Positions 128-43,726 of a stretch of DNA of 46,626 nt are shown in pieces. The position numbers and the translations under genes were made by a program. Position 1 is the stretch's first letter. Every line of letters starts with the position of its first letter. The stretch spans positions 1 to 46,626 of the IMG/VR virus record IMGVR_UViG_3300037851_000404, one strand, 5' to 3'. Source of the stretch: a virus. Under the pieces are notes generated by a model. The model was not told the DNA's origin. It was given only the letters and a program-made list of their open reading frames with translations, and ran no database searches.

Positions 128-391
128 AAGTACCGCACCTACTCAGCCAATGGCAACTACCCTCACGGCTTCGGAGTCTTAGTCTCCTACGCAGTCCTCG
201 GAGGCGAAGATGGCTACAAGCATGCTAAACTTGGAGAGCAGCAATTTACTAATCGTCACAAGATTCGCGTCGACGACTACTGGGCAAAAGCGATGGAAGT
301 TGGCAAAGCTGAACATGAATGGCTTAATGAACGCAAGAAGTACGACTACCTAGAAATTCTTTCAACTAAACCTTGGGAACAAGTTACTTAA
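1..391 (+). CDS. GT-A glycosyltransferase, C-terminal part (same gene as 45919..46626, continued across the junction)
   Basis: Frame of 45919 is continuous with the 20..391 ORF (46519 corresponds to 20). No stop until TAA at 389-391. Carries ...WGGAEQLMQMKSLMMGYENWAIITDPIIHIG... Confidence 0.8.
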   Translation, partial: GGAEQLMQMKSLMMGYENWAIITDPIIHIGPYTPAVIQTGQYKYRTYSANGNYPHGFGVLVSYAVLGGEDGYKHAKLGEQQFTNRHKIRVDDYWAKAMEVGKAEHEWLNERKKYDYLEILSTKPWEQVT

Positions 392-405
392 ATCATTTAA
401 TCATC
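383..405. repeat. 23-bp AT-rich palindromic boundary motif, copy 1
   Basis: GTTACTTAAATCATTTAATCATC. Contains the TAA stop of the glycosyltransferase (389-391) and ends 1 nt before the terL ATG at 407. Confidence 0.85.
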
Positions 406-406
406 T

Positions 407-1972
407 ATGCTAAACGGAATAGAAAATACTGAGCCTATTAGAGACTCTCTCGAGTCTAACCTCTTAGGTCTTTGCAGCTTCAGCACTCGCATGTGCGCTC
501 AGACATTCTTTCCTGAGCGCTTCACTATGCCATTTGCCGAGAATGTCCATGGAGAAATCTTCAAACTCATTGACTCCACTCACAACAAAATAGCCATCGC
601 TGCACCTCGTGGATGGGGAAAGACTTCAATTGTCGCCCTTGCTCTAATGTCTCGTTACATCCTCTTCCACCACACTCACTTCATCTGCTACATCAACAAG
701 TCTCATGATGCCGCTTCACTTCAAACTGAAAACCTTCGTCGTGAACTTGTAACCAACAAGATGATCAAACACTACTTCGGCTCCTTCAAAGAGCGCGATG
801 TGAACAAGCATGAATTTGAAGAAGTTTTCAGCAAAAAGGCCTGGGTCGCCTACAACACCTTAGTCTGGCCTCGAGGCGCTGGTCAGCAAGTCCGTGGTGT
901 CCTCTTTAAAAATGACCGCCCTGGACTCATAATCATAGACGACCTTGAAGACCCTGAGAAGATCGAAAATGAAGAGATTCGCAAGGGCTGGTACCAGTGG
1001 CTCTACGCAGACGTAATTAAGGCAGTTCCTCGACTCCACAGAAATTGGAAAATCGTCTACATTGACACCTTAAAACATGAAGACTCTGTATTGCAAAAAC
1101 TTCTGGATTCTCCAGAGTGGCAAAGTGTTCGTCTCGAAGCGTGCGACGACAACTTCAATCCAACCGCTCCACAATTCATGTCTAAGGATGACATCTCGCG
1201 TGAATGGCAGGAGCACGTCGACGCTGGTCAAACCGACGTCTTCTTCCGAGAACTCCGAAATCTCCCAATCTCCACCAAAGATTCTGCATTTCGTAGAGAG
1301 TATTTCCACTACTACAATCTACCTCCTGATAGAGCTAAGTCTGAAAGCGATCTATCTCTCACCGACGCTGATGTTCAAAATGACAGGAATATTGAGACAG
1401 TTGTCATCCTCGATCCAGCAAAGACTGTCAAAATTCACTCTGCCGAGTCTGCTATTATAAGCGTAGGAATAGACATCAATAGCGCCAGACTCTTCATTAG
1501 GGATGCAATCTCAGAAAAACTATACCCTGATGAAATTTACAAAGCTCTCTTCGGAATGGCTATTCGCCACAATGCTAAGGTAATAGGCATTGAAGAAACT
1601 TCTCTCAATGAGTTTATCAAACAGCCTATCAAAAATGAGATGTTTAAGCGTGGCAAGTTCTTTGAACTAGTCTGGCTTAAAGCTCGCGGCGGGATGAAGA
1701 AAGAACTTCGTGTCAAGGAACTGGTCCCTTACTACCGTCTTGGCTACATCTATCACAACGCTAGATGTGAACCAATCAAAAAGCTTGAGTCCCAACTCCT
1801 AATGTTCCCTCGATCAGCCCTCTGGGATTTAATGGACTGTGAGGCATACATAGTGGAAATGCTCGAACTTGGTGAGCGCTATTTCAGTCCCACTATGGAC
1901 CCTGAAGACTCAGAAGCTGAATTCAAAGAACTCGAATACGACGATCCTATGGACAATTGGAGAGTAGTTTGA
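407..1972 (+). CDS. terL: Terminase large subunit
   Basis: 521 aa. Walker A AAPRGWGKTS, Walker B LIIIDDLED, and a C-terminal nuclease-like region (VVILDPAK...). Lies upstream of the portal gene. Confidence 0.85.
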   Translation: MLNGIENTEPIRDSLESNLLGLCSFSTRMCAQTFFPERFTMPFAENVHGEIFKLIDSTHNKIAIAAPRGWGKTSIVALALMSRYILFHHTHFICYINKSHDAASLQTENLRRELVTNKMIKHYFGSFKERDVNKHEFEEVFSKKAWVAYNTLVWPRGAGQQVRGVLFKNDRPGLIIIDDLEDPEKIENEEIRKGWYQWLYADVIKAVPRLHRNWKIVYIDTLKHEDSVLQKLLDSPEWQSVRLEACDDNFNPTAPQFMSKDDISREWQEHVDAGQTDVFFRELRNLPISTKDSAFRREYFHYYNLPPDRAKSESDLSLTDADVQNDRNIETVVILDPAKTVKIHSAESAIISVGIDINSARLFIRDAISEKLYPDEIYKALFGMAIRHNAKVIGIEETSLNEFIKQPIKNEMFKRGKFFELVWLKARGGMKKELRVKELVPYYRLGYIYHNARCEPIKKLESQLLMFPRSALWDLMDCEAYIVEMLELGERYFSPTMDPEDSEAEFKELEYDDPMDNWRVV

Positions 1973-2379
1973 GAACTGAAGCTGATTATATAGAAAGGAA
2001 GGGTTTCGGACGAAGGGCTACCGATGGCACTTGTCCACTGCACAATCTAGTCCACGATGACAATGAGAAGGACCACACTCATATGTGTGGAAAGATTGCT
2101 AAGGTCGATTCTAAAATGGATCACAAGGTTGACAAGAGTGATTTCTACTGGCTAATTGGAGTTGTAATAGTAGTCATCTCAACAGTGGTTGGCGCAACCA
2201 ATTTATGGCTCAGATCAGACATCAAGGATGGCCTAACAGTAATTGACCGACGAGTAACTGAAAACGCTGAAGAACGTAAACAAGACATAAAAGCTATAAC
2301 TTCAGAACTCAAGTCAATCTCATCTGATCAGCAAGTCATTAAGCATCGAGTAGGTGAGATTGAGAGTAAGGTGAAATAA
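1957..2379 (+). CDS. Hypothetical membrane protein with C-terminal coiled coil
   Basis: 140 aa from a TTG start overlapping the terL end; start uncertain. One TM segment FYWLIGVVIVVISTVVGATNLWL. Confidence 0.45.
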   Translation: MESSLRTEADYIERKGFGRRATDGTCPLHNLVHDDNEKDHTHMCGKIAKVDSKMDHKVDKSDFYWLIGVVIVVISTVVGATNLWLRSDIKDGLTVIDRRVTENAEERKQDIKAITSELKSISSDQQVIKHRVGEIESKVK

Positions 2380-2402
2380 GATGATTAAATCATTTAAATA
2401 TC
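2380..2402. repeat. 23-bp AT-rich palindromic boundary motif, copy 2 (degenerate)
   Basis: GATGATTAAATCATTTAAATATC. Contains the ATG at 2381 and encodes the first residues MIKSFKY. Confidence 0.7.
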
Positions 2403-3964
2403 TGGTTTTTGCACTCCTTCTCTTAATAACTCCAGCTTATGCAGCTAACTACTATTTCAACCTCGCAAGTGGAAATGACACAACTGGCGATGGCACAGCT
2501 GGAAATCCCTGGAAGACCATCGACAAGTGTACTACCTCAAGGTCAGCTGGTGATGAGTGCCGCGGAGCTAAGACGGCAATCACAACTCTCTCCGGCACTC
2601 TCACCTTCACAGACGGAAGCACCAGCGTTGCGACTTCGGTTGACCAAACTGGAACCGTTGCGGCAGGTGACGTAATTGGAAAGAACTCCGGCCTTGAGGG
2701 ATGGTGGCAGGTTGCTTCACTTACTTCAACTACAATCACCTTAACTGCTCAATATTGGGGCCTTTCTGGCTCCGGAGATGCTGTAACAGGATATAGTATT
2801 GCCCCAATTACAGCAACTGAGGAATATGATCTTAACTCGTCTGGGTCAGAAGGTAATTTAATCAAGGTATCTGGTGGCTGGGACCTTGCTGGTGGTCCAA
2901 CACAGGACGGACTTACTTATGTTTCAACAGCTTATAATGGTATAGATGCAAATGCAAAAAGTTACGTTGAAGTAAGTAAATTTATCTTTCGGCCTACAAC
3001 AGGCAACTGCATGGGTGGGACAGGTACAAATATATCATTTACAGATATATTTTGTGTGGGTGGAACTTCAAGTAATCAATATGCGCTTAATTTGCATAGT
3101 TACACAACACTAACGCGATGTGTGGGAACTGGAGGTGTAGCAAGTACTTTTGTTTTTCTTGGGCCAGTGGTTGCAACAGATTGTTATAGCTTTAGTTCAG
3201 GTAATAGCTCTTCTGACTGTGGTATTGAGGCTGGATTTTCTGGTGTATACGAGAATGCAAGAGTCTATAATTCATATGGAAATGGATTCTGCTTTCCTAT
3301 AAGATCTGGCAACAACCATTTTAATGATCCTGTCTCAGTAAAAACAAGGGCAAGCTCAAATTTTTATTTCTTAGGGACAGGAAATAATTGGTTTTACAAT
3401 GCAACTGCTTCTGATGCAGCGACTTATGCGGTTCAAGTGTACACTGGTGATTGTTTCAATAATTACTTTATAGAGTCATCTTTAACAGCTGGGAGCAGTG
3501 GTTTATTTAATAATCCGGTAAGTTTTCAAAGTACACTTTTACCAGCTGCAGTTATTAAACCCCCAGGTAGTGATGCTATATATTATTATTATGATGGTAA
3601 AATAGAGCATGACTCTTCATCAGAATGCCGGTCTGGTAAATGCTTAAAATTTACTCCTACATCAGCTACTGTTCCGCTCGCCTATAAGGTTGGAAATGTA
3701 AAAATACCAAGTGCATCAAGCGATTTAACTCTTTATATCTATCTCAAGGATGATTCCAGTTTTAATGGAGTTGTTAGTTTTATTGTAGATAGGAATGGAG
3801 AATTTATATCAATAACTTACAAGACTCCAAGTACTTCGTGGGTACAGCAGTCTATTGTTGTAGGTTCAAGTGATTTAGTAGCTAATGAATATTTGGATCT
3901 TTATGTTATTGTATCTGGTACAGCTGGAAACATCTACGTTGACGACTTCAGCGCGGATCAGTAA
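2381..3964 (+). CDS. Right-handed beta-helix (pectate-lyase-like) protein with N-terminal signal peptide; candidate depolymerase or tailspike
   Basis: 527 aa. N-terminus MIKSFKYLVFALLLLITPAYA/ANYY looks like a Sec signal. SGNDTTGDGTAGNPWKTI is the typical start of parallel beta-helix proteins. Gly/Ser/Thr/Asn-rich repeats follow. Confidence 0.55.
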   Translation: MIKSFKYLVFALLLLITPAYAANYYFNLASGNDTTGDGTAGNPWKTIDKCTTSRSAGDECRGAKTAITTLSGTLTFTDGSTSVATSVDQTGTVAAGDVIGKNSGLEGWWQVASLTSTTITLTAQYWGLSGSGDAVTGYSIAPITATEEYDLNSSGSEGNLIKVSGGWDLAGGPTQDGLTYVSTAYNGIDANAKSYVEVSKFIFRPTTGNCMGGTGTNISFTDIFCVGGTSSNQYALNLHSYTTLTRCVGTGGVASTFVFLGPVVATDCYSFSSGNSSSDCGIEAGFSGVYENARVYNSYGNGFCFPIRSGNNHFNDPVSVKTRASSNFYFLGTGNNWFYNATASDAATYAVQVYTGDCFNNYFIESSLTAGSSGLFNNPVSFQSTLLPAAVIKPPGSDAIYYYYDGKIEHDSSSECRSGKCLKFTPTSATVPLAYKVGNVKIPSASSDLTLYIYLKDDSSFNGVVSFIVDRNGEFISITYKTPSTSWVQQSIVVGSSDLVANEYLDLYVIVSGTAGNIYVDDFSADQ

Positions 3965-4639: not shown

Positions 4640-4640
4640 A

Positions 4641-5384: not shown

Positions 5385-5956
5385 GCAAGAAAGTTTGCAT
5401 AGTCGGCTGCAACGCCAACAATGTTGAAGCTCCCTTCAGTGAAAAGGGCTGGGAGTTCTGGGGAATAAATTGCTTGTACCTATACCTAAATTCCAGCCCT
5501 TTCACTCGATGGTTTGAGATTCATAAGTTCTCAGTAACACTAGGTGGAACTTGGCTTAGGAAGGGCAAACGAGAGTACATGGGAACTTCGGTTAACCTAT
5601 ATCTCTCTGGGCTTAACTCACTGGAAATCCCAGTCTACATGCAGCACAAGATTCCACTTATTTGGAAATCTATTGCATTCCCAAAGGCTGAAATTACTAA
5701 CAAATTTGGAAACTATTTCACATCCTCAGCTGCATGGATGATGGCTTTAGCGATTCACGAGGGCTTTGATACAATAGGTCTGTATGGCCTCAACATGGAT
5801 CATGAGAGCGAATATCACTTTCAAAAGCCCTGTCTCGAATACTACATAGGACTGGCAAAAGGATTAGGAATAGAAATACTGACGCCTGAAAACTGTGGAC
5901 TACTTCATAGTGACCATCTTTATGGATTTGATGAGATAATTAAATCATTTAATTAA
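5381..5956 (+). CDS. Putative CstII/Maf (GT42/DUF115)-like glycosyltransferase
   Basis: 191 aa. KKVCIVGCNANN N-terminus and FTSSAAWMMALAIHEGFDTIGLYGLNMD resemble, from memory, the CstII motifs KKVIIAGNGPSL and ITSGVYMCAVAIALGYKEIYLSGIDFY. ATGA overlap with the upstream gene. Confidence 0.35.
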   Translation: MSKKVCIVGCNANNVEAPFSEKGWEFWGINCLYLYLNSSPFTRWFEIHKFSVTLGGTWLRKGKREYMGTSVNLYLSGLNSLEIPVYMQHKIPLIWKSIAFPKAEITNKFGNYFTSSAAWMMALAIHEGFDTIGLYGLNMDHESEYHFQKPCLEYYIGLAKGLGIEILTPENCGLLHSDHLYGFDEIIKSFN

Positions 5957-5957
5957 C
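5935..5957. repeat. 23-bp AT-rich palindromic boundary motif, copy 3
   Basis: GATAATTAAATCATTTAATTAAC. Supplies the TAA stop at 5954-5956 and lies 16 nt upstream of the portal ATG. Confidence 0.9.
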
Positions 5958-5973
5958 TATTCGAGGTCACAAG

Positions 5974-9515: not shown

Positions 9516-9524
9516 CCAATAACA

Positions 9525-9547
9525 GTTGATTAAATGATTTAATCAAC
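9525..9547. repeat. 23-bp AT-rich palindromic boundary motif, copy 4 (perfect palindrome)
   Basis: GTTGATTAAATGATTTAATCAAC, 24 nt upstream of the capsid ATG. Confidence 0.9.
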
Positions 9548-9571
9548 TTTCGCAAATAGGAGGCTCAAAAA

Positions 9572-10933: not shown

Positions 10934-10940
10934 CCCAACA

Positions 10941-10963
10941 GTTAATTAAATGATTTAATTATC
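10941..10963. repeat. 23-bp AT-rich palindromic boundary motif, copy 5
   Basis: GTTAATTAAATGATTTAATTATC, the exact reverse complement of copy 3. Lies 11 nt upstream of the ATG at 10975. Confidence 0.9.
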
Positions 10964-10974
10964 TCGAGGTCAAG

Positions 10975-14756: not shown

Positions 14757-16451
14757 ATGGCTTGGAACCAGCCAGATAGTTTCCACATAACAGATGGGGC
14801 AGTAGCTAGCGGTGTCATAACTGATACCTACACAGACAATGGCATCAAGCATGTGTTGGAAGAAGTTACTGGCACCCCTGGGATGGACTACGAGTACTGG
14901 TTTGCCACTGTTCCAGCCTACAACTGGATCAGAGTTCATGTTAATGGTTACTATGAAGGCAATCCAGCTCATGATGTAGAGATTAGCGTCTGGAACTTTA
15001 CCTCGTCTGCATGGGATCACTTTGATACCATGTTAGATGCCTCAGCTGATGCTGATTTTTACTCACCTGATCTCCCAGGTGCTGACTACATCAGCGGTGG
15101 AGTTGTTAAGGTTAGATTTCATCATCCTGATTCTGGAAACACTTCACATAGGCTATACCTTGATGCTGTGTTGCTTGAGGATAGGTCTAGTTTTCACACC
15201 ACAGTGGCTCCGACAACTGTGCCTCCCACAACAGTGGCTCCATCAACTCCGGTTCCAACCACTACCTTAACCACTCCAGTTCCAACTACTACATTAACAA
15301 CAGCTCCGCCAACAACTCCTTGGGGCGAAGACATCTACGTCGATCCGATAGAATTAACTCTATCTAGCAAGCATGTTTTTCACTACAATCCGCCTGCTCC
15401 TGTCAATCCAGGGCTTGATCGAACTTGGACGTTTGAAGATCTTCCAATTGAAATAACTTTGTCCATTCAAGGACAGAACCAGTATGCAGGAATTCTAGTT
15501 GATCCAATCGAGATCATTATCACTCCTGTCCATTCGCAGTTTAGCGAAGGCCAAACGATTGAAGTAGATCCAATCGACCTTGTTATAGTCCCAACCTTTG
15601 ATGACATTCTTAAGTCATTCGACAGATGCAATTTTATCAAGTGGTCCAAGGTCGGAAGGTTTGACTTTACCATAGATGAAAGTAATGAAGCTGGAGAGCG
15701 TCCTGTAGATTGGAATGGATGCATCTGGCATGTGGCAAAGCTTGGATCAGCAGTAGGTGTGTACGGAACTAATGGCGTTACACTACTTAAGCCAAGTGGT
15801 GTTAACTGGGGAATGGACACTATTTATCGAATAGGGCTTAAGAACAAAGGAGCGTTTGCTGGAAGTGAGAGCAGACACTTCTTCGTTGACAACCTTGGGC
15901 AGCTATTCCAAGTTGATGAGACTTTGACTAGGCTTGACTATTCTGAATTTATCAGTAGAATGAGCACAGTTATACTTAGTCTTGACATTGAAAAGAACTT
16001 ACTCTACATCTGCGATGGAACCCTTGGATTTGTCTACAGCATTGAATCTAAAAGCTTTGGTGAAGGCCCAGTTAATGTCACGGGGTTTGGGGCTCAAAGT
16101 GGAAACATCTACGTAGTTAGCTACGGAGACATCATTACACCGAAGCTTGAAATCTGCACTGACATCTATGATTTTGAAACTAGGCGTCAGAAAACAATTA
16201 AGTCAATTGAAATAGGAACTGACTCAACTCAGTTCTTGTATGCATCGCTAGATTATCGAACTAGCTACAAAGATGACTTTAAGCAAATAGGATGGTTCTT
16301 AGTCAATCCAGATGGAAAGGCTTATCCTAAGTGCTACGGAGTTGAATTCAGATTCAGAATCAAATCTTTGATTTATGAGTATTTGGAAATAGATTATTTG
16401 AAAGTAAGAGGCCACATCCATGGCTTCTCGTATCTTGATTCAGTTGGATAG
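14757..16451 (+). CDS. Tail protein with internal Pro/Thr linker and DPIE repeats
   Basis: 564 aa. TTVAPTTVPPTTVAPSTPVPTTTLTTPVPTTTLTTAPPTTP at about 15196-15320, followed by four [VL][DP][PI][IE]...-type units (VDPIELTL, LPIEITL, VDPIEIII, VDPIDLVI). Confidence 0.55.
   Translation: MAWNQPDSFHITDGAVASGVITDTYTDNGIKHVLEEVTGTPGMDYEYWFATVPAYNWIRVHVNGYYEGNPAHDVEISVWNFTSSAWDHFDTMLDASADADFYSPDLPGADYISGGVVKVRFHHPDSGNTSHRLYLDAVLLEDRSSFHTTVAPTTVPPTTVAPSTPVPTTTLTTPVPTTTLTTAPPTTPWGEDIYVDPIELTLSSKHVFHYNPPAPVNPGLDRTWTFEDLPIEITLSIQGQNQYAGILVDPIEIIITPVHSQFSEGQTIEVDPIDLVIVPTFDDILKSFDRCNFIKWSKVGRFDFTIDESNEAGERPVDWNGCIWHVAKLGSAVGVYGTNGVTLLKPSGVNWGMDTIYRIGLKNKGAFAGSESRHFFVDNLGQLFQVDETLTRLDYSEFISRMSTVILSLDIEKNLLYICDGTLGFVYSIESKSFGEGPVNVTGFGAQSGNIYVVSYGDIITPKLEICTDIYDFETRRQKTIKSIEIGTDSTQFLYASLDYRTSYKDDFKQIGWFLVNPDGKAYPKCYGVEFRFRIKSLIYEYLEIDYLKVRGHIHGFSYLDSVG
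15196..15320 (+). repeat. Pro/Thr-coding repeat including a tandem 27-nt duplication (PVPTTTLTT x2)
   Basis: ccggttccaaccactaccttaaccact / ccagttccaactactacattaacaaca read directly; acagtggctcc also occurs twice. Confidence 0.75.
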
Positions 16452-16473
16452 ATAATTAAACCATTTAATTAAC
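16451..16473. repeat. 23-bp AT-rich palindromic boundary motif, copy 6
   Basis: GATAATTAAACCATTTAATTAAC. Begins at the last base of the TAG stop at 16449-16451 and lies 9 nt upstream of the ATG at 16483. Confidence 0.9.
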
Positions 16474-16482
16474 TGGTGGAAA

Positions 16483-24894: not shown

Positions 24895-24912
24895 TTAAAT
24901 GGTTTAATCATC
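24890..24912. repeat. 23-bp AT-rich palindromic boundary motif, copy 8 (at the convergence point)
   Basis: GATAATTAAATGGTTTAATCATC. Contains the stop of the + gene (24892-24894) and of the - gene (24904-24906). Confidence 0.9.
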
Positions 24913-26109
24913 TGATCCAATAAACTTTATATACATTCCATCTCCAGGTCTGGATATAGATTGAACTATCTTCGCAGCTTCAAGAGTTGCAATGACTCGA
25001 TCTATTGTAGCCTTATCCATATCATTCTCGAATCGTCTAGCGAACTTCCACAAAGGCATTTCGTTAACTTTGGACATCTTAAGAAATGTAGTAGCTTGAT
25101 GAACCAACTCAGCAATATCACTCTTCCCAACTCCTTTAAAGACCATTCCCATCTTGTTTTCAACTTCGGTCAGTGTATCTATTGCCTCGTTCAGATTGTC
25201 CTCAGTCAAAATTAGTAATCCATCTTTTGATCTAGAAACAGAATGAACCATTGCTAACTTCATCAAGTGTCCACGTCTACGTCCATTATAGCCGTCGAAT
25301 CTTCTATCACGAAACGGAGGGTTGTTGAACTGATCTCTGCACCAAGTATCCCATCTCTCCATGAATTTAGAAGTCCATCTAAATCCGCCTGACAGTAAGC
25401 TTATCTGCTCAAGGTCATGAACTAGGTCAATGAATAGTTCTCGCTCAGCTGCAGTTTCAGTTGGAAGGGTTACAAGTTTTTCTGGCTTTTCTTCAAATAC
25501 GAAGATGATTCGACTGGTTAAACCACCTCCGATTGACTCTATCGGCAGCGATGAGCGGATTAAATCTGGAGTTGTTCCTGCAATCAAGTTGACCCAAACA
25601 CCTATGATTTCTTCCTTTGATCTTGAAATAGTTTCATAAACCCACCTTGGATCACAGTCATACCAGTCACAGAGGGCTGACATTAGTTCTCTATTCTGAT
25701 ATCCCAAGAATACGGTGAACTCTTTAGAGAAGATTGTCATAGATGCATGGAATGACTGCTGGCCAGTCACTAAGTCAATGTCATTTAAGTTGGTTTCTTT
25801 CAACTTTCTAATTAGTGCTTGAAGTGATGTGGCTTGAGCAGCCATGTGGACTGAAGGAATTTCTCGAAGGATGTTTAATCCAGGATTCATGGCAGTGCCT
25901 TTGCCAGTTGCACTTGGGCCAACAAGGACTATGTAGAAGTTAGGGTAGAATGTTAAGTTGCTTCCCCATTCTATCTTCACCTTCCTTTGAAGTGCTGAGG
26001 CTATGCATGAAATAGCTGTCCATTTTCTGAAGAGCCTAGGAGGTTCAGAATTTTCTGTATAGCACATGAAGCCAGAAATCCAGTCGTTGAGATTCCTTTC
26101 GTAGGACAT
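24904..26109 (-). CDS. DUF3987-like P-loop ATPase (candidate replicative helicase or helicase-like)
   Basis: 401 aa. Walker A LVGPSATGKGTA. GGGLTSRIIFVFEE is Walker B-like. The architecture is reminiscent of DUF3987/primase-associated helicase C-terminal domains. Confidence 0.5.
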   Translation of the reverse strand: MSYERNLNDWISGFMCYTENSEPPRLFRKWTAISCIASALQRKVKIEWGSNLTFYPNFYIVLVGPSATGKGTAMNPGLNILREIPSVHMAAQATSLQALIRKLKETNLNDIDLVTGQQSFHASMTIFSKEFTVFLGYQNRELMSALCDWYDCDPRWVYETISRSKEEIIGVWVNLIAGTTPDLIRSSLPIESIGGGLTSRIIFVFEEKPEKLVTLPTETAAERELFIDLVHDLEQISLLSGGFRWTSKFMERWDTWCRDQFNNPPFRDRRFDGYNGRRRGHLMKLAMVHSVSRSKDGLLILTEDNLNEAIDTLTEVENKMGMVFKGVGKSDIAELVHQATTFLKMSKVNEMPLWKFARRFENDMDKATIDRVIATLEAAKIVQSISRPGDGMYIKFIGSDD

Positions 26110-28983: not shown

Positions 28984-29000
28984 CTCGATTTCCTCCGAAA

Positions 29001-29023
29001 GATGATTAAATGATTTAATTAAC
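29001..29023. repeat. 23-bp AT-rich palindromic boundary motif, copy 9
   Basis: GATGATTAAATGATTTAATTAAC. Contains the stop of the ParB-MTase gene (29015-29017) and lies 18 nt upstream of the polymerase start at 28983. Confidence 0.9.
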
Positions 29024-30331
29024 TTTCATATTGTGCAACTTGACAAGGAATGAGTCTCGATAGGATTTGCTAAGTTCGAATCCAACAGGGGTCATACCAA
29101 GATTGTTCGCCGCTATGATTCCAGACCCAGAGCCGAGGAAGGGAATTAGAACTCTAGAGCCAGTAAAAGCGAAGGTATCATAGATGTCGGTCATCAGATC
29201 AACCGGACGCTCAGTCGGATGAGATTTCTGCTGTGGAGATACCGGAGGATATGTAAAGACATTAGCGCGACCTTCTTTATTAAGAACAGGACGACCTTTC
29301 CAGGCGTAGAAGAACATTTCATAGGAGTTAGCGAGATACAGCTCCGGCCTTTTAGCTTGACCGTACCCTTTGTTCCAAATTCCACACATCCGAGTTGTAG
29401 TGAATCCTGCATTATGAAGCTCCTGATAAATGATCTCGAACCAAGGTTCTGGGGCAAACCAGCAGAGAAGCCATGAGTGCTCAGTCATGACTCGGTAGCA
29501 TTCGTGAAAGAGTTTTGAGAGGAATACTTGGTATTGATCTGAAGGAATTTCGTTGTACTGATCTTGGACATAGATGGACTCGCCATCTGTTTTCTTCATA
29601 GCGTTGAGATCTATGGCATATGGAGGGTCGATTTCAACCAGGTGGATTACATTGTCAGGGATTTTCTTAACGCCTTCAAAGAAGTCTGCAATGATGTAGG
29701 ACTTGGCAAGTTGATTGATCTTGCTATCAGAGCGATTGGACTCGAGTTTGCGAGCAATCTCTTCCTTTGTGATCATCTCGTCAATTTTCTTAATGATCTT
29801 AGTTGCGTCCTTCTGAGTCTTGCATTCTTCGAACAATTCAGGGAAGGCCTCTCTTGCTTCCGACCGCTTGATGGCGGTAGAGACTGAGGCATCAGTGACA
29901 CCAGCCATAGCTGCTGTGTCCTTCAATGTCCAGCCTTGGTGCCCAGGGCCAGGAGCAGCTACGCCATGGATAGATTGTTGAAGTTCGTGAATTTCCCTGA
30001 TGAGGTTGTCAGTTTCCCAATACTCGAAATCCTTGCGATAGAAATTTTCAGCGAGCTCGATTGACTTCATTTCGAGATCTGTGATTCCATCAGGGTAGAT
30101 ACGAACAGGGATGAGTTCGACTTTGTTACGCTCGAGGACAATGAACCTACGTTCTCCAGCAAGGAGTCGATAGGTCCCATTGTCAGACTGTTTCACAGCG
30201 AGAGGGGATATAAGACCTCTCTCGTGCATTGACTTCTCCATCCCATCAAGGTCGCCCATTTCCTTACGAGCTCTGTCACTGATAGAAATGGAGTTGAGGG
30301 GAACCATCTTTACTTCACCTACGTTAATCAT
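29015..30331 (-). CDS. ParB-like nuclease domain fused to a DNA methyltransferase (DPPY; N6-A or N4-C class)
   Basis: 438 aa. ParB N-terminal pattern LLAGERRF. MTase motif IV EIDPPY and motif I-like LIPFLGSGSG. Confidence 0.8.
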   Translation of the reverse strand: MINVGEVKMVPLNSISISDRARKEMGDLDGMEKSMHERGLISPLAVKQSDNGTYRLLAGERRFIVLERNKVELIPVRIYPDGITDLEMKSIELAENFYRKDFEYWETDNLIREIHELQQSIHGVAAPGPGHQGWTLKDTAAMAGVTDASVSTAIKRSEAREAFPELFEECKTQKDATKIIKKIDEMITKEEIARKLESNRSDSKINQLAKSYIIADFFEGVKKIPDNVIHLVEIDPPYAIDLNAMKKTDGESIYVQDQYNEIPSDQYQVFLSKLFHECYRVMTEHSWLLCWFAPEPWFEIIYQELHNAGFTTTRMCGIWNKGYGQAKRPELYLANSYEMFFYAWKGRPVLNKEGRANVFTYPPVSPQQKSHPTERPVDLMTDIYDTFAFTGSRVLIPFLGSGSGIIAANNLGMTPVGFELSKSYRDSFLVKLHNMKVN

Positions 30332-32524: not shown

Positions 32525-32525
32525 G

Positions 32526-33030: not shown

Positions 33031-33053
33031 ACAAATTCCCACTTCAGCCTCCA

Positions 33054-33076
33054 GATAATTAAATGGTTTAATTAAC
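33054..33076. repeat. 23-bp AT-rich palindromic boundary motif, copy 10
   Basis: GATAATTAAATGGTTTAATTAAC, between the stop at 33114 and the start at 33030. Confidence 0.9.
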
Positions 33077-33113
33077 TTATGCGTGATATAGTATGCGCAT
33101 CCCACTTTGCGAT

Positions 33114-36441: not shown

Positions 36442-36458
36442 TCTTATCCTCCCGATGA

Positions 36459-36481
36459 GATAATTAAATGGTTTAATTAAC
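36459..36481. repeat. 23-bp AT-rich palindromic boundary motif, copy 11
   Basis: GATAATTAAATGGTTTAATTAAC, identical to copies 10 and 12. Contains the stop at 36477-36479. Confidence 0.9.
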
Positions 36482-36773
36482 TGAATACGATGTTTCTTTC
36501 GATATACTTCCCTTGCTTAAAAAGTAAGAGGTTCAATCTTTTGTGCTTTGTAGCGAACACGGAGCAGATGATTGAGTTGAGAGTGTTGAGAGAGCAGAGG
36601 ACTATGTGATCCCTTGGAGAGGAATCTTTCATAGCCTCTGCAGTCTGCCTGTGCATATCGTTGACGTTGAAGCGGTTTAGCTTACCTCCGGTTACAAAGA
36701 CCAGTTCACCAAACCTTTCTGCATCTGAGAAATCATGCGCGCTCTTGTTTGCGATAAAGACCTTTGATTTCAC
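36477..36773 (-). CDS. Hypothetical protein
   Basis: 98 aa, tightly packed with its neighbours. Confidence 0.45.
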   Translation of the reverse strand: MKSKVFIANKSAHDFSDAERFGELVFVTGGKLNRFNVNDMHRQTAEAMKDSSPRDHIVLCSLNTLNSIICSVFATKHKRLNLLLFKQGKYIERNIVFS

Positions 36774-39646: not shown

Positions 39647-39661
39647 AATGCTATCTCCTCA

Positions 39662-39684
39662 GATAATTAAATGGTTTAATTAAC
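39662..39684. repeat. 23-bp AT-rich palindromic boundary motif, copy 12
   Basis: GATAATTAAATGGTTTAATTAAC. Lies 15 nt upstream of the start at 39646 and abuts the stop at 39684-39686. Confidence 0.9.
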
Positions 39685-39977
39685 TAACTCACTATCAAAC
39701 CCTCAAGCTCAGCAATCAAGTCGTTGATTTGATCCTGGGTCATCTGCCTCCTTTTCTTGGGTTCAGTTGATTTGCCGCCCTGGATGACCTTCAAGCGGCC
39801 ATCTCGAAGTGCCCATTCCTTGTCGATTGCTTCATAGCGCCTCTTGCGATCGACATAGATCTCATGCAGACGGAGGTAGATCTGCCTAAGTGCATCCATT
39901 TCCTTGCGAAGTTCCTTCATCTCACGTTTGAGTTCCATCTTACCATCCGTTAGCAGCAATGGACAGGGCTTTTCCAT
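39684..39977 (-). CDS. Hypothetical coiled-coil protein
   Basis: 97 aa, charged heptad-like sequence. Confidence 0.45.
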   Translation of the reverse strand: MEKPCPLLLTDGKMELKREMKELRKEMDALRQIYLRLHEIYVDRKRRYEAIDKEWALRDGRLKVIQGGKSTEPKKRRQMTQDQINDLIAELEGLIVS

Positions 39978-40925: not shown

Positions 40926-40978
40926 CAAGCCAATCCATGTTATTTTAAATTACAGTTGCGTCCATAGCCATAGCACCA

Positions 40979-41001
40979 GTTAATTAAATCATTTAATCAT
41001 C
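40979..41001. repeat. 23-bp AT-rich palindromic boundary motif, copy 13
   Basis: GTTAATTAAATCATTTAATCATC, the exact reverse complement of copy 9. Contains the stop at 40993-40995. Confidence 0.9.
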
Positions 41002-41871
41002 TCGATCCTCAACCAAGCCATCAGGCCTAGGACATTCATTAAGCTGTCTCAAATACTCTTCGTCCTTCCTCTTAATCCTCTCCTCTTCAGCATCCATCTC
41101 TTCAGAACTCTTAGGTCTAATAACTTCTTCAATCTTCTTCTTCTTCTCCTTCAAAGCATTAATCTTCTCTTCAATCCTACTAGCCTTCCTCAATCCTTTA
41201 ACCCTTTCCTTCTCAGCTAACTCTTTCTCCAACTGCTCCTTCTTCACCTTCTCAGCATATTCCATTCTTCTTCTATTAAACTCTTCAACCTCTCTCTTTT
41301 GCTCAGCCAGTTTCTCAGCCGAAATCTCTTTCCTCTCAACCTTATATCCTTCATCTTTATTCACCTTCTTACTAACCTCCAAGCTTTTACTCGTAAGCGC
41401 TGCAATCCACTTCATCCTCTCCCTCGATCCAATCGGAGGCCCTTCAGGTCCCCACTTGCTGAAATCAACTTCATCTCCATCACTCTCAACTTCCTCCTTC
41501 TTCACTTCACTCAACTGCATATTATTCAGCAAGTTCTTCTTCCCTCTCCCTCTCGGATTTAGATCTATCCTAAACCTCGACTCAATCCAAAACCTTGCAT
41601 CACTAGTCTCAATCTCTTCAACCTTCCCTTCTTCTTCCAACCTCTCCACTAACATCTCCAGCGGAACTCTAACCAACTCACTCATAAACCTCAACCTAAT
41701 CCCTTCCCTCTCCATCCACATCCCTATCTTCGCCAACATTCTACTATCCATCCAAACTTGCACACAACTATCTCCCTTCCAACTTCTAGCCATCATCAAG
41801 CTCTTCCCTTTCGTACTCCCTTCCACATACTCTCCCTTCCTCCACTTATACTTCCCTCCACTCTCTCCCAT
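40993..41871 (-). CDS. Highly charged Lys/Glu/Arg-rich early protein
   Basis: 292 aa. The coding strand is extremely purine-rich. The + strand ORFs over this region are Ser/Leu/Phe/Pro-rich artefacts. Confidence 0.55.
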   Translation of the reverse strand: MGESGGKYKWRKGEYVEGSTKGKSLMMARSWKGDSCVQVWMDSRMLAKIGMWMEREGIRLRFMSELVRVPLEMLVERLEEEGKVEEIETSDARFWIESRFRIDLNPRGRGKKNLLNNMQLSEVKKEEVESDGDEVDFSKWGPEGPPIGSRERMKWIAALTSKSLEVSKKVNKDEGYKVERKEISAEKLAEQKREVEEFNRRRMEYAEKVKKEQLEKELAEKERVKGLRKASRIEEKINALKEKKKKIEEVIRPKSSEEMDAEEERIKRKDEEYLRQLNECPRPDGLVEDRDD

Positions 41872-41924: not shown

Positions 41925-41996
41925 TTGTTAAACCCTATATGTTATTGTCGTTATTTTTTTTTTTTTTTTTTTAACAAGGCATATAGGGTCTAACAA
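41925..41996. repeat. 17-bp inverted repeat (1 mismatch) enclosing a T19 tract
   Basis: TTGTTAAACCCTATATG (41925-41941) pairs with CATATAGGGTCTAACAA (41980-41996). Confidence 0.85.
41954..41972. repeat. T19 homopolymer (A19 on the minus strand)
   Basis: Counted directly as 7+10+2 T across the numbered lines. Confidence 0.9.
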
Positions 41997-42085
41997 TATG
42001 TATTAACGACACGAACGACAATAAAATTGATGATGGATGATCTAGATAGGATGGTCAATGAAATAATTGGTGAAATTGAGATTGA

Positions 42086-42108
42086 GTTAATTAAATCATT
42101 TAATTAAC
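42086..42108. repeat. 23-bp AT-rich palindromic boundary motif, copy 14 (perfect palindrome)
   Basis: GTTAATTAAATCATTTAATTAAC, inside the 446-bp noncoding region 41872-42317. Confidence 0.9.
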
Positions 42109-42245
42109 TAATTGCTGTCATCTCCCTAGATTGAACTATCAATCTGTCCCCGGACCCCCTAACCTAGGTGATTTAGCTATCTATTTCAATTGCAACTTTG
42201 TAGTTTCCCCTAATAGAGCGTTAGTTAGAATGCCTCAACCACTGG

Positions 42246-42280
42246 AAACAAAAAAGCCCTAGAGCAATCACTCTAGGGCT
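42246..42280 (-). terminator. Rho-independent terminator of gene 42318..42683
   Basis: The minus strand reads AGCCCTAGAG-tgattg-CTCTAGGGCT followed by TTTTTGTTT. Perfect 10-bp stem. Confidence 0.75.
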
Positions 42281-42292
42281 TAGTTGTTAGGT

Positions 42293-42315
42293 GCTAGTTG
42301 CTAGCTGCTAGTTGC
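42293..42315. repeat. Tandem heptamers (GCTAGYT)x3
   Basis: GCTAGTT GCTAGCT GCTAGTT GC, between the stop codon and the terminator. Confidence 0.6.
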
Positions 42316-42317
42316 TT

Positions 42318-42683
42318 TTACTCGTTCTCGTTCTCGGACTCTTCGAGCTTCTTCTCGAGTTCGTCTGCCTGATCGTCCATGCCCATTTCTCGCAACACCT
42401 TGATTCCGGCAAGAATCTTCTCCCGCTTGGACACAATTTTCTTGCCCGCATCACCGGCTTGAATTGTTGTTCCGTCTAAGGCCTCGAGTTCCGCAACCGA
42501 CAGACCCCGCGCCGGACGCTGGAACGCAATTACCCGGTTGGAAACGAGCCACGCTTTAACCTCGTTATCCGGCACGTTTGCAAAGTCAAATCCCATTTTG
42601 ATAGTGACGGATTCGCCATTGTCCAAGGTGGTTTTAAACGAGTGGTAAACTACGCCGATCATTTTGCCGATGGTATTAGCCAT
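42318..42683 (-). CDS. Hypothetical first leftward early protein (GC-rich, acidic C-terminus)
   Basis: 121 aa from the ATG at 42683 (AGGTG RBS); the track ORF starts at GTG 42692. It has its own promoter candidate and terminator. Confidence 0.55.
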   Translation of the reverse strand: MANTIGKMIGVVYHSFKTTLDNGESVTIKMGFDFANVPDNEVKAWLVSNRVIAFQRPARGLSVAELEALDGTTIQAGDAGKKIVSKREKILAGIKVLREMGMDDQADELEKKLEESENENE

Positions 42684-42815
42684 AAGATTCACCTACCCTT
42701 TCAATTAGTTACGGTTGAATCGGATGGCTAGCATCTAGCACCGTTTCGGCACAACCCCCTAGGCCTAAACGTCCTAGGGCTTCAAATTGTCAAAGAACAT
42801 CAAAATTTTGATTCA

Positions 42816-42844: not shown

Positions 42845-42990
42845 TAAAAATCGTAAGTCATTGAAATCATTACGAATTATCTAGCCCACAATTTCGATGG
42901 GGGAGTTTTTCGCCAAAGTCCGCGCGGTTAGCCCCAAAACATTTTGTCCCAAAAAACTAATCTAAATTCCCAAATTTTCCCAATTATCGA

Positions 42991-43018
42991 TCACTGCTCA
43001 CTGCTCACTAATCATTGA
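42991..43018. repeat. Four tandem heptamers TCACTGC TCACTGC TCACTAA TCATTGA
   Basis: Read directly in the divergent control region. Confidence 0.7.
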
Positions 43019-43064
43019 TTGGAGTGGGAATGGGAGAAAGGGATTGAGATGGGGAAATGGAGGA

Positions 43065-43087
43065 GTTGATTAAATTGTTTAATTAAC
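43065..43087. repeat. 23-bp AT-rich palindromic boundary motif, copy 15
   Basis: GTTGATTAAATTGTTTAATTAAC, 28 nt upstream of the -35 of the rightward promoter. Confidence 0.8.
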
Positions 43088-43114
43088 TGGAATACTTTTT
43101 CGAAAATTATTACG

Positions 43115-43143
43115 TTGACAACTAGGAACTAAAATGTTATGAT
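43115..43143 (+). promoter_or_regulatory. Sigma70-type rightward early promoter with extended -10
   Basis: TTGACA-N17-TATGAT with TGt before the -10. It lies about 48 nt upstream of the ATG at 43191. Confidence 0.65.
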
Positions 43144-43190
43144 GATGTTGGTTTAGGTGCAAGGTGTACTTAGTAGATTGAGGTCAAGAG

Positions 43191-43712
43191 ATGTCAGAGC
43201 GAACTTCATTATACGGGTTTGAGTTTAGGGAAGTCGACGAACGGAGGGTCGAGAATCGCTCTTTTGACATCAAACAGCTTTGGCAGCGATCTCATGAAAT
43301 CATTGGCTTGGCCCTCCAAGGGTTGAAACAAACTGAGATTGCAAAAATCTTAAACGTCACTCCTGCAACTGTCAGCAATACGCTCAACTCGCAGCTCGGC
43401 AAGGAGAAACTTTCTCTAATGCGCGAAGAGAAAGACGAGCACTATAAAAAGGTCAATGAGGAGATTAGAAAGCTCACTATCAAAGCTCTCGACACTTACC
43501 ACAAGCTCTTTGACTCTCCTTCCATCGACGCTGAGTTGAAAAAAGAAACTGCTGACACAGTCTTGATGGACATAGCTGGAATGCGTGCTCCGACCAAAGT
43601 CGACACTCGCACTCTCCACGCTCATGCCACGCTTGAGGAAATTCAGGAATTCAAAGAAAGAGGAATCAGAGCAGCTAGAGAAGCAGGGCTTTTGGTTGAC
43701 ATAGATGCTTAA
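43191..43712 (+). CDS. HTH DNA-binding protein (LuxR / sigma70 region 4-like); candidate regulator or small terminase
   Basis: 173 aa. GLKQTEIAKILNVTPATVSNTL helix-turn-helix motif. It is the first gene after the strong promoter. Confidence 0.5.
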   Translation: MSERTSLYGFEFREVDERRVENRSFDIKQLWQRSHEIIGLALQGLKQTEIAKILNVTPATVSNTLNSQLGKEKLSLMREEKDEHYKKVNEEIRKLTIKALDTYHKLFDSPSIDAELKKETADTVLMDIAGMRAPTKVDTRTLHAHATLEEIQEFKERGIRAAREAGLLVDIDA

Positions 43713-43726
43713 ATCATTTAATCGTC
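43704..43726. repeat. 23-bp AT-rich palindromic boundary motif, copy 16 (degenerate)
   Basis: GATGCTTAAATCATTTAATCGTC. Contains the stop at 43710-43712 and lies 12 nt upstream of the ATG at 43739. Confidence 0.75.

Follow-up and report, generated by a model that had tools for sequence, protein, structure and literature searches.

Sixteen copies of a 25-bp palindrome are spread over the genome of this phage, and we believe that they are probably parS/NBS-like sites at which a ParB/Noc-family fusion protein of the phage itself binds duplex DNA, a reading that comes from comparing sequences across related phages. The window, by which we mean the whole 46,626-nt stretch of viral DNA analysed, encodes this protein as a ParB-like N-terminal domain and a helix-turn-helix (HTH) joined to a DNA methyltransferase. 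The specific evidence for this protein is that the recognition helix of its HTH changes together with the core of the palindrome.

A palindrome spread over the genome

Thirteen places in the window match GWTRATTAAANNNTTTAATYRWC exactly. Allowing up to three mismatches gives exactly 16 starts against 0.05 expected, the same 16 that a first-pass annotation made from the letters alone had listed; the remaining copies (383, 2380 and 43704) carry one or two mismatches each. Dinucleotide-preserving shuffles held 0.00 exact-consensus matches, so the repeat is enriched over a compositional null, with 0 expected and 16 seen. An A precedes and a T follows in all 16 copies, which makes the element a palindrome of 25 bp, A-GWTRATTAAA-NNN-TTTAATYAWC-T (Table 1; in the text a copy is named by the base after its leading A). 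Mean spacing is about 2.9 kb. The finer relationships that had been described hold as well: 33054, 36459 and 39662 are identical, as are 16451 and 17756; 10941 is the reverse complement of 5935 and 40979 that of 29001; and 9525 and 42086 are perfect palindromes, the centre base excepted. A partial core pointed out at 45281 is present but it is not a site.

All copies lie at gene boundaries, as claimed, and those at 383, 5935, 16451, 24890, 40979 and 43704 share bases with the stop codon of the ORF before them. It is important to realize that stop codons within the motif close two or three frames of each strand, so the motif's absence from gene bodies is partly forced, and the intergenic placement is largely a consequence of these stop codons. 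The copy at 24890 does mark the convergence of the two arms. The strand bias suspected in the central triplet is a bias of the centre base, which on the coding strand is C and not G in 9 of the 10 orientable copies of the window and stands at 16:2 (C:G) across the clade.

Table 1. Palindrome copies, domains of the proposed reader, variant cores, and pairings of recognition helix with motif base
Feature	Position in window or motif	Strand or base	Remarks
Copy 1	382..406		AGTTACTTAAATCATTTAATCATCT, 1 mismatch; overlaps stop of ORF 20-391; TerL ATG at 407 directly after
Copy 2	2379..2403		1 mismatch; contains ATG (2381) of signal-peptide protein
Copy 3	5934..5958		portal gene 15 nt downstream; overlaps upstream ORF's stop
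Copy 4	9524..9548		perfect palindrome; major capsid gene 23 nt downstream
Copy 5	10940..10964		just past GC-rich hairpin 3' of capsid gene; next gene 10 nt on
Copy 6	16450..16474		overlaps stop of ORF 14757-16451; gene 16483 is 8 nt on
Copy 7	17755..17779		gene 17795 is 15 nt on
Copy 8	24889..24913		arm convergence point; overlaps stops of 2000-aa virion protein and primase genes
Copy 9	29000..29024		between ParB-methyltransferase and DNA polymerase genes; polymerase ATG 16 nt on
Copy 10	33053..33077		exact consensus match
Copy 11	36458..36482		16 nt before gene 36441
Copy 12	39661..39685		14 nt before gene 39646
Copy 13	40978..41002		overlaps stop of gene 40993-41871
Copy 14	42085..42109		perfect palindrome; downstream of intrinsic terminator 42281-42254
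Copy 15	43064..43088		between divergent early promoters
Copy 16	43703..43727		2 mismatches; overlaps small terminase gene's stop; gene 43739 is 11 nt on
ParB-CTPase-fold + HTH + N6/N4 DNA methyltransferase fusion gene	29015..30331	-	438 aa; proposed palindrome reader
ParB N-terminal (CTPase-fold) domain	30041..30274	-	residues 20-97; contains GERR (Box II-like)
HTH	29864..29935	-	residues 133-156, GWTLKDTAAMAGVTDASVSTAIKR
N6_N4 DNA methyltransferase domain	29054..29647	-	residues 229-426; DPPY motif
Variant cores			GTTTAAA-W-TTTAAAC; GTTCAAA-T-TTTGAAC; GTCCCAA-N-TTGGGAC
Recognition-helix residue 2 = D	motif position 5	A	6/6
Recognition helix TNAS	motif position 5	A	2/2
Recognition-helix residue 2 = K	motif position 5	G	32/32
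Recognition helix DAS or NAS	motif position 8	A	8/8
Recognition helix KGG	motif position 8	C	4/4
Recognition helix KAT	motif position 8	T	9/10
Recognition helix TKAA	motif position 8	A	3/3

The frame is conserved and the core varies

In IMG/VR the exact 25-bp pattern is found again and again, on contigs of dozens of metagenomic phages, and the genes that motif-bearing contigs share with the window are 66-74% identical in DNA. A search of 185,579 bacterial and archaeal genomes gave just 16 scattered single matches. Part of the relatives keep the sites in the same position: before the portal gene (5935) in 3 of 6, before the major capsid gene (9525) in 7 of 8 and before the polymerase gene (29001) in 4 of 5. 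Distant relatives have lineage-specific variants in the same 25-bp frame, and L159, L161, L179, L180, L181 and Desulfofustis phage MD01 combine the 5+7+1+7+5 arrangement with a different core. Their sites are partly at equivalent positions too, after the primase gene at the convergence (L159, which has two, L179 and MD01) and before the polymerase, portal and TerS genes. A more distant relative, MW202489, has a ParB-methylase and about six intergenic GTTTAC-N6-GTAAAC palindromes. Mel-JY34 and Vibrio phage VS-ABTNL-3 encode ParB-methylase homologs (23-25% identity) without a comparable multi-copy palindrome, which counts against reading the sites as ParB-type.

The candidate reader and its recognition helix

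The fusion protein matches ParB_N (E = 1e-9) and N6_N4_Mtase (E = 6e-17) in Pfam, and its PDB sequence matches are Noc, ParB and Spo0J together with CcrM and N4C methylases. A Box III-like ENFYRKD follows just downstream of the ParB N-terminal domain, and the methyltransferase stands where the usual C-terminal dimerisation domain would be. The Box II arginines R61 and R62 and the Box III ENxxRKD are invariant in a seven-member alignment, and L159 and MD01 have Gly in place of the Box II glutamate (GGRR vs GERR). In HMMER the family profile aligns to ParB and Noc over the N-terminal domain alone; hhalign extends the match over the N-terminal domain and HTH with 96% probability, in a comparison with a single Noc sequence that is the basis for the HTH equivalence.

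The first-pass annotation had offered three options for the repeats, the first of which was sites for a dimeric phage DNA-binding protein. We support this option, since the HTH covaries with the core and the sites bear the signature of a dimer on duplex DNA. Three proteins had been put forward, and the ParB-domain protein at 29015 is the sole candidate with specific evidence. The HTH protein at 43191 is instead an ortholog of the small terminase of MD01. The RHH-like protein at 30533 was rejected as reader: its putative DNA-reading strand is unchanged across lineages with different motifs, and Pfam, a PDB sequence search and Foldseek gave it no support. The word operator may be too narrow given that the candidate reader is a ParB-CTPase-methyltransferase fusion; the sites may instead serve for loading or targeting and not as classical repressor operators.

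The specific evidence comes from 45 distinct HTH variants with at least three stringent sites each. In the recognition helix, residue 147 changes with the first core base: D, or N in a TNAS-type helix, goes with A in 8 of 8 and K with G in 32 of 32, where the counts are raw and ignore kinship. Relatedness was taken from a quick neighbour-joining tree: D/N-type and K-type proteins are interleaved outside the HTH, and the nearest neighbours of the TNAS protein of L188 are K-types at 72-74% identity. There is one exception, the SNAT helix of L241, which pairs with G, so the D/N rule is context-dependent. D147 aligns in hhalign with Q158 of Noc, which reads adenine 1 of NBS, and with the equivalent R173 of ParB, which reads guanine 1 of parS (PMC7383237). 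Judged by this alignment, the covarying residue falls where ParB and Noc have the residue that decides between parS and NBS.

How the sites might work

If the palindromes are indeed ParB-type sites, the two HTH domains of a dimer would each take one half-site, whose core (A/G)TT(A/T/C)AA(A/T) is enclosed by the conserved AG...CT frame. If the protein behaves as ParB, Noc and KorB do, nucleation on the palindrome would be followed by nucleotide-dependent closure of the clamp and movement onto flanking DNA. With sixteen sites about 2.9 kb apart, the fused methylase would then be enriched over the entire phage genome and kept away from host DNA, and sites 25-26 bp upstream of sigma-70 promoters may additionally modulate transcription in the style of KorB operators. 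Binding might serve to load a sliding methylase, to methylate locally or to regulate in the manner of KorB. Several observations sit awkwardly with this. The HTH alone does not account for the invariant outer AG/CT, the centre-base preference for C is left over by the model, and so is the conserved spacing to the TerS promoter, which a purely regulatory role fits equally well. If the reading is true, these would be the first candidate DNA targets for a common phage ParB-methylase class, going by the accessible part of the literature on it, and the clade offers a candidate site array and specificity code for such fusions.

Other readings

It is possible, but in our opinion unlikely, that the fused methylase simply has the palindrome as its long recognition sequence, with the HTH as target-recognition module and no clamp or spreading. 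The methylated base would be in each of the 16 palindromes or beside it, perhaps within the invariant AG/CT ends, and the marks would be epigenetic signals for transcription, replication or packaging. The link between protein and site is common to this reading and to ParB loading. The outer AG...CT stays constant across HTH types, so it could be read by another conserved region of the protein, for instance the methylase, and GGRR for GERR in L159 and MD01 would fit a lost hydrolysis cycle. However, the CTPase-fold motifs are otherwise strictly conserved, which is hard to explain for a mere tether, and 16 methylated sites would give no restriction protection.

Somewhat more doubtful is the proposal that a global transcription regulator, the ParB fusion or another phage protein, uses the sites as KorB- or stoperator-like operators. 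The dimer would activate or repress adjoining sigma-70 promoters and, within operons, block elongating RNA polymerase, and such blocking would set the temporal programme and insulate the converging arms. The first-pass annotation had placed sites upstream of the early promoters, and this is correct for 43065, which is 26 bp upstream of the -35 of a strong promoter (43115-43143), and for 40979, which is 52 bp upstream of the -35 of a sigma-70-like promoter on the minus strand (40925-40897); 42086 precedes a weaker match (42058-42030), with a similar 26 bp to the weak -35-like hexamer at 42058. Strong sigma-70-like promoters are found in the window only within 39.2-43.2 kb. The strong TerS promoter has the motif 25-26 bp before its -35, both in the window and in two diverged lineages (near-duplicate contigs A and B, and contig C), with the sequence in between differing among them, and the convergence-point site is conserved and doubled in L159. 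Against this, a scan of about 50 proteins found no integrase or repressor, which makes the phage look lytic; roadblocks just before the highest-expressed genes, capsid and portal, would come at a high cost; stoperators are asymmetric and transcription-oriented (PMC6550527), unlike the symmetric sites of this phage; and the fusion of the reader to a methylase is left unaccounted for.

We consider it very improbable that the element acts at the RNA or single-strand level, be it as a processing hairpin, terminator, translational operator or N4-type hairpin promoter with an unrecognised polymerase. The motif does stand just before the Shine-Dalgarno sequence, with an ATG 0-2 nt after it in about a dozen cases, the centre base is strand-biased as described, the inner 6-7 bp are always able to pair, and the 2000-aa virion protein has a large region without an assigned domain. 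However, among 112 non-redundant sites mirror positions 2/22 are paired in 54 (56.6 expected under independence) and 4/20 in 57 (60.3 expected), so the variable mirror positions lack compensatory change, and the left and right halves have equal base composition in gene orientation. As RNA the copies fold at 0 to -8.4 kcal/mol, mostly near -2 and for most between 0 and -2.4, and two do not fold at all. The missing covariation and the weak or absent folding argue for a protein dimer on duplex DNA and not for a hairpin; as far as sequences can tell, the palindromes are symmetric without being under selection for base pairing. This disfavours the other two options of the first-pass annotation, cruciform or N4-type promoters and RNA stem-loops, for mirror pairing is not above chance, folding is weak or absent, and no RNA polymerase was detected among the window's scanned proteins (the annotation had recognised none either). 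Moreover, no U-tracts follow the elements, the capsid gene already has a separate GC-rich hairpin behind it, the element has no Rfam match, Pfam and a PDB sequence search find no polymerase domain in the giant virion protein, and a promoter at the convergence point would have no gene to serve.

We give hardly any credence to the repeats being mainly recombination linkers for cassette exchange between related phages with no dedicated binding protein, a role like that reportedly proposed for the PeSL elements of T4-type phages: sites do bound variable modules (the tail/host-range block 1957-5956, where 1 of 6 genes has matches in relatives and orthologs are thus nearly absent, ends at 5935, and TerS and TerL, adjacent in MD01, are separated in the window by a 3.3-kb accessory block flanked by 43704 and 383), but the two-fold symmetry, the 25-bp frame with lineage-specific cores and the HTH covariation are unaccounted for, and exchange is probably a by-product and not what the repeats are for.

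Comparison with known systems

KorB of IncP-1 plasmids is a ParB-family protein with about a dozen palindromic operators (OB) of 13 bp, some adjacent to promoters and some far from them; it has its own dimerisation domain, a partner KorA and no fused enzyme. Like the proposed phage system it joins a ParB-family protein to palindromic sites spread over the genome of a mobile element, but the candidate phage reader is fused to an enzyme and no KorA equivalent was identified in the phage. The KorB system is among those cited in PMC13229309.

The SAS and ESAS repeats of Cluster K mycobacteriophages also stand directly before start codons, and ESAS are inverted repeats with a lineage-specific consensus and unknown function (PMC3203893). 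SAS differ in being asymmetric and including the Shine-Dalgarno core, ESAS in having 17-bp arms, a variable spacer and a place only among non-structural genes, and no reader was proposed for either (PMC3203893). Cluster A stoperators occur in 20-30 copies on both arms, mostly in short intergenic gaps, and are 13-bp asymmetric, transcription-oriented sites bound by the monomeric immunity repressor of temperate phages (PMC6550527, PMC9283540). Their consensus likewise varies by lineage and co-evolves with the binding protein, but our sites are symmetric, our phage looks lytic and our candidate reader is a ParB-methylase. Fusions of the ParB-CTPase fold with an N6_N4 methyltransferase, the same architecture as the 29015-30331 protein, are among the commonest phage ParB fusions and of unknown function according to the accessible part of PMC12704722, which describes no cognate DNA sites for them.

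Compared with Noc-NBS and ParB-parS, the phage protein has a methyltransferase in place of the C-terminal dimerisation domain, no ParA was found among the phage proteins scanned, the element that carries the system is a lytic-looking phage, and nucleotide binding and sliding are only putative for the phage protein. At 25 bp the phage site is longer than parS (16 bp), and it has a 7+1+7 core between conserved AG/CT ends. Noc has about 70 sites per genome. As in the phage, these are scattered over the genome (PMC8429893). All these systems have a CTPase-fold N-terminal domain followed by an HTH that reads (in the phage, would read) a palindrome as a dimer, and half-sites that start (G/A)TT. The helix residue that goes with G or A is at the same aligned position in each, R173 with G1 in ParB and Q158 with A1 in Noc (PMC7383237), K with G and D/N with A here.

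The palindrome array and its conservation

The first-pass annotation described sixteen copies of an AT-rich palindrome, and its consensus holds up well: 13 copies match it exactly, all 16 match with at most two mismatches, and dinucleotide-preserving shuffles contain virtually none. Its remarks on which copies are identical, reverse-complementary or perfect are correct in every case. Every copy also has an A at its 5' flank and a T at its 3' flank, so the element is a 25-bp palindrome, A-GWTRATTAAA-NNN-TTTAATYAWC-T, rather than the 23 bp proposed. Its sole asymmetry is the centre base, which on the coding strand is C versus G in a ratio of 16:2 across the clade. All copies do lie at gene boundaries, as had been claimed. 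Since stop codons occur in two or three frames of the motif on either strand, its absence from gene bodies is partly automatic. Of the 25 window gaps between adjacent genes that measure 8 nt or more, 15 have a site, and the short ones among these consist almost entirely of the motif and a Shine-Dalgarno sequence. The mean spacing of the 16 sites is 2.9 kb and the largest gap is 7.1 kb.

Related contigs share the motif. The exact 25-bp pattern is repeated in many IMG/VR contigs that have genes in common with the window at a DNA identity of only 66-74%, and a site sits directly upstream of the orthologous major capsid gene in 7/8 relatives, of the DNA polymerase gene in 4/5 and of the portal gene in 3/6. 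The closest named relative, Desulfofustis phage LS06-2018-MD01 (51% amino acid identity in the capsid, 46% in the polymerase), lacks this motif and has instead nine intergenic copies of another 25-bp palindrome, GCTAT-GTCCCAA-N-TTGGGAC-ATAGC, partly at equivalent places: 3' of the primase gene and 5' of the portal and TerS genes. In other relatives the core differs within the same AG...CT frame and 25-bp length: it is GTTTAAA-W-TTTAAAC in relative L159, GTTCAAA-T-TTTGAAC in L180 and, more loosely, GTTYAAW in L161, L179 and L181. From lineage to lineage the sequence changes, yet length, symmetry and placement do not, which argues for a co-evolving reader encoded by the phage.

The distant relative MW202489.1 (62% GC) encodes a homolog of the ParB-methylase, the ParB-methyltransferase fusion protein discussed below, and its own palindrome array may be a second, independent instance of this system. 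Two further distant relatives with a homolog, Mel-JY34 and Vibrio phage VS-ABTNL-3, show no obvious site array. MD01 has a second repeated sequence besides its palindrome, CTTAAATCATAAGAAGTA, in 5-6 copies. We found no prior description of these repeats in the literature, including the pink-berry phage paper.

The ParB-methylase as candidate reader

Among the operator proteins originally put forward, the one with a ParB domain is the candidate that gains ground, through its alignment to Noc and the covariation of its helix-turn-helix (HTH) with the motif. The N-terminal domain matches Pfam PF02195 with E = 1e-9, over the curated cutoff, and the family profile matches ParB, Spo0J and Noc structures with E ~1e-11. 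The sequence hallmarks of the ParB CTPase fold, Box II (GERR in the window) and Box III (ENxxR), are both there. In our family alignment (A3) the Box II arginines, R61 and R62, and the ENxxRKD residues, E95, N96 and R99 among them, are invariant; in L159 and MD01 a Gly replaces the Box II glutamate. The other, C-terminal half of the protein is not a dimerisation domain but an N6_N4 methyltransferase that carries a DPPY motif.

The HTH, GWTLKDTAAMAGVTDASVSTAIKR, is of the classic kind and occupies residues 133-156. Aligning A3 to Noc with hhalign (the 7OL9 sequence, one sequence only) gives 96% probability over 111 columns that include KDTAAMAGVTDASVSTAIKR; the HTH falls within it, with D147 opposite Noc Q158. 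With HMMER and the family profile the alignment stops short of the HTH. We therefore hold with moderate confidence that the HTH directly following the N-terminal domain is homologous to that of ParB and Noc.

Further evidence comes from comparing proteins with the sites beside which they occur. The HTH sequence was scored against the sites of the same locus in 80 further loci with ParB-methylase relatives, and we counted the distinct HTH variants that came with three or more stringent sites, 45 in all; the figures are raw counts, uncorrected for phylogeny. Where residue 147 is D, motif position 5, the first core base of the half-site, is A (6/6); the same base goes with the helix T-N-A-S (2/2), and where residue 147 is K the base is G (32/32). 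Position 8 is A with the helices DAS or NAS (8/8) and with TKAA (3/3), C with KGG (4/4) and T with KAT (9/10). Outside the HTH the D/N- and K-type proteins are interleaved at 65-74% identity, the nearest neighbours of the N-type protein of L188 being K-type, so the association of residue and base is not just one deep split.

This pattern has a close counterpart. In ParB, R173 hydrogen-bonds guanine 1 of parS, and the equivalent Q158 of Noc reads adenine 1 of NBS; specificity is set by four positions, of which this is one (Jalal et al., PMC7383237). In the phage family G accompanies a basic residue at the homologous position, and A an acidic or amide one; the base concerned is homologous to position 1 of parS and NBS and is followed by TT. 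Such a parallel is what one would expect if the HTH reads the palindrome, and we regard the covariation as strong indirect evidence at the level of sequence. From the covariation we infer that the ParB-methylase would bind the palindromes.

What the sites may do

The function of the protein at its sites is argued by analogy. ParB, Noc and KorB use palindromes as nucleation sites, from which they form a CTP-dependent clamp that moves onto adjacent DNA (PMC12704722, PMC8429893). The reading we prefer is that the sites would recruit the ParB-methylase to phage DNA and, by this analogy, probably load it as a sliding clamp. It would nucleate at the roughly 16 phage-specific parS-like sites, close around the DNA and slide, and the whole phage genome could be methylated soon after replication with the host chromosome spared. 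The specificity code, helix residue 147 together with the first core base, would be readable and diversifying between phage lineages. We advance the full proposal only tentatively, namely that the palindromes are loading sites of a nucleotide-switch clamp carrying a methyltransferase, a self-addressed anti-restriction or epigenetic marking system.

Two narrower roles have to be weighed against loading. The sites may serve a regulatory role like that of KorB, and here the placement is suggestive: both the window and two diverged relative lineages have a site 25-26 bp away from the -35 of the strong TerS promoter, and a site is conserved where the two arms converge. Alternatively, methylation may take place at the sites only. 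If the sliding methylase is real, it would be a new viral means of confining the action of an enzyme to the virus's own DNA, and a compact, programmable DNA-targeting system.

Other readers and other kinds of element

The RHH-like protein at 30533 had also been named as a possible regulator, and we demote it: its putative DNA-reading strand, PRF(S/A/T)FEIS, is unchanged across motif types. It has 63 homologs, and its profile is present alongside palindrome-bearing lineages and absent from four outgroups. Its AlphaFold model (pLDDT 77) has no Foldseek match, and Pfam and PDB sequence searches lend it no support. The gene is one of two small ones that always lie just 5' of the ParB-methylase gene in palindrome-bearing lineages, the first encoding 80-90 aa with the conserved PRFSFEIS N-terminal strand and the second a basic protein of ~70 aa; a palindrome abuts the start codon of the first in 6/8 relatives. 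The two proteins could be partners of the ParB-methylase. The third candidate, the HTH protein at 43191, drops out as a regulator, being the ortholog of the MD01 small terminase, whose gene is adjacent to TerL there; its Pfam matches are only sub-threshold, to HTH and sigma-region-4.

The early, site-flanked protein 40993 matched only itself in a large protein database, and the conserved protein 38814 has a confident model (pLDDT 88) and no fold match. Orthologs of 40993 in relatives are only 31-41% identical. Its N-terminal segment is strand-helix-helix-like, and the protein also has a long coiled coil rich in K and E; the coding strand of its gene is very purine-rich, and GC skew is -0.38 over 40-42 kb.

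RNA stem-loops and cruciforms, the remaining options of the first-pass annotation, fare poorly. In 112 non-redundant clade sites (matches with at most three mismatches) there is hardly any variation in the inner bases or in the outer AG/CT, and it is positions 2/22 (W/W) and 4/20 (R/Y) that vary. Watson-Crick pairs number 54 at 2/22 and 57 at 4/20, against 56.6 and 60.3 expected if the positions were independent, and G-C occurs at these variable mirror positions in only 4 cases. Half-site composition is the same left and right when sites are oriented by the downstream gene. Folded as RNA, six of nine copies reach an MFE of only 0 to -2.4 kcal/mol, two of the six being unfolded. There is thus no excess of pairing at mirror positions and folding is weak; as judged from these sites, the signature is that of a protein dimer on duplex DNA, with each of the two half-sites read independently, and not of an RNA or cruciform.

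More specific versions fail too. Most of the copies folded lack the stable stem-loop that an RNase III-type processing hairpin or, with a U-tract, an intrinsic terminator would need, the terminator consensus scan does not pick the sites, and no Rfam family was found in the window. N4-type hairpin promoters are countered by variable stem positions without covariation and by the failure to find an RNA polymerase domain; the giant virion protein, where a polymerase might hide, yielded only SLT and LPD23 domains. A sigma-70 promoter within the motif, we reason, has unfit spacing and no -35. We discount the likeness of the outer GATAAT...ATTATC to the Fur box, given its different spacing and the GTTAAT present in half of the copies. 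Mimicry of a host regulon is dismissed by 185,579 bacterial and archaeal GTDB representative genomes, where the exact pattern turns up just 16 times, as scattered singletons.

The surrounding genome

The whole window, 46,626 bp, is one complete contig and belongs to a podovirus-like phage. No tRNA genes were found in it, and a DNA search of the phage collection returned nothing near-identical. The hairpin upstream of palindrome 10941 is probably the capsid terminator, and relative L153 has the same order of hairpin and palindrome. The 19-nt homopolymer lies within the long 5' leader of gene 40993-41871; it may be prone to slippage, may be regulatory, or may have arisen as an artefact of assembly. 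The leader of the first leftward gene contains a second hairpin. In MD01 the small and large terminase genes stand side by side. The nucleotide- and sugar-modifying genes may serve modified DNA bases or surface-sugar remodelling; in relatives ThyX is also present, and their DNA polymerase bears a UDG-like domain.

Coordinates of features in the window and in two relatives
Feature	Position	Strand	Content or context
Structural arm	43191 through window end to 24894	+	TerS, TerL, portal, capsid gene, 2000-aa internal virion protein
Replication arm	~42700 down to 24904	-	primase, DNA polymerase A, ParB-methyltransferase, Sak4, exonuclease, ligase
ParB-methylase gene	29015-30331	-	438 aa
Two small genes	30533-30802, 30328-30540	-	just 5' of ParB-methylase gene
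Equivalent small-gene pair, MD01	9872-10337
Early gene	40993-41871	-	292-aa protein
19-nt homopolymer	41954-41972		T19 on plus strand, A19 on coding minus strand; loop of inverted repeat AGACCCTATATG ... CATATAGGGTTT
GC-rich hairpin	10900-10935		GGCTGGGC...GCCCAGCC; directly 3' of capsid gene, directly 5' of palindrome 10941
Strong intrinsic terminator	42281-42254	-	3' of first leftward gene
Early control region	42254-42330, 42700-42790, 42985-43015		short direct repeats
Direct repeat	after gene 42318-42692		CAACTAGCAGCTAGCAACTAGCACCTAACAACTA
Direct repeat	near 43000		GTGAGCAGTGAGCAGTGA
TerS-TerL block, ~3.3 kb	43713-46626 and 1-406		between TerS and TerL genes; includes NAD-dependent epimerase/dehydratase and SAM methyltransferase; flanked by palindromes 43704 and 383
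Variable tail module	1957-5956		one end is site 5935
Nucleotide/sugar-modifying genes	26112-26492, 30799-31983, 31976-32662, 44492-45328, 45261-45917		MazG-like pyrophosphatase, two epimerase/GDP-mannose-dehydratase-like proteins, dCMP deaminase, class I methyltransferase
Palindromes of MW202489.1	474, 10270, 18882, 31466, 36645, 38793		ccgGTTTAC-N6-GTAAACcgg, ~6 intergenic copies

Comparison with known systems

Fusions of the ParB CTPase fold to N6_N4 methylases are counted among the commonest phage ParB fusions in PMC12704722, which gives their function and DNA targets as unknown. PMC13229309 mentions the idea that ParB homologs guide DNA-modifying enzymes to specific loci and calls it experimentally unconfirmed. 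What this clade provides is a candidate array, 16 sites to a genome, together with dozens of protein/site variants found in nature and a simple predicted specificity rule at the very residue that separates ParB from Noc, so the question becomes directly testable with purified protein and short oligonucleotides.

Noc with NBS and KorB with OB resemble the phage pairing in logic and in protein family. The sites differ: parS and NBS are palindromes of 14-16 bp, whereas here a 7+1+7 (15 bp) core lies inside a conserved 25-bp palindrome, and only the (G/A)TT start of the half-site is common to both. The phage palindrome is a variant site architecture. Canonical partition systems have a C-terminal dimerisation domain and ParA; here there is an N6_N4 methyltransferase, and no ParA-like ATPase was found among the ~50 window proteins scanned with PHROGs or Pfam. 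Stoperators (PMC6550527) and SAS/ESAS (PMC3203893) resemble the phage sites only in genomic distribution. Cluster A stoperators are asymmetric, oriented with transcription and bound by the immunity repressor of a temperate phage, whereas these sites are two-fold symmetric and no integrase or repressor was detected among the proteins scanned with PHROGs or Pfam. We classify the pairing of a ParB-family protein with an array of palindromic sites as known, and the fusion partner, the site architecture and the large co-varying series of proteins and sites as new.
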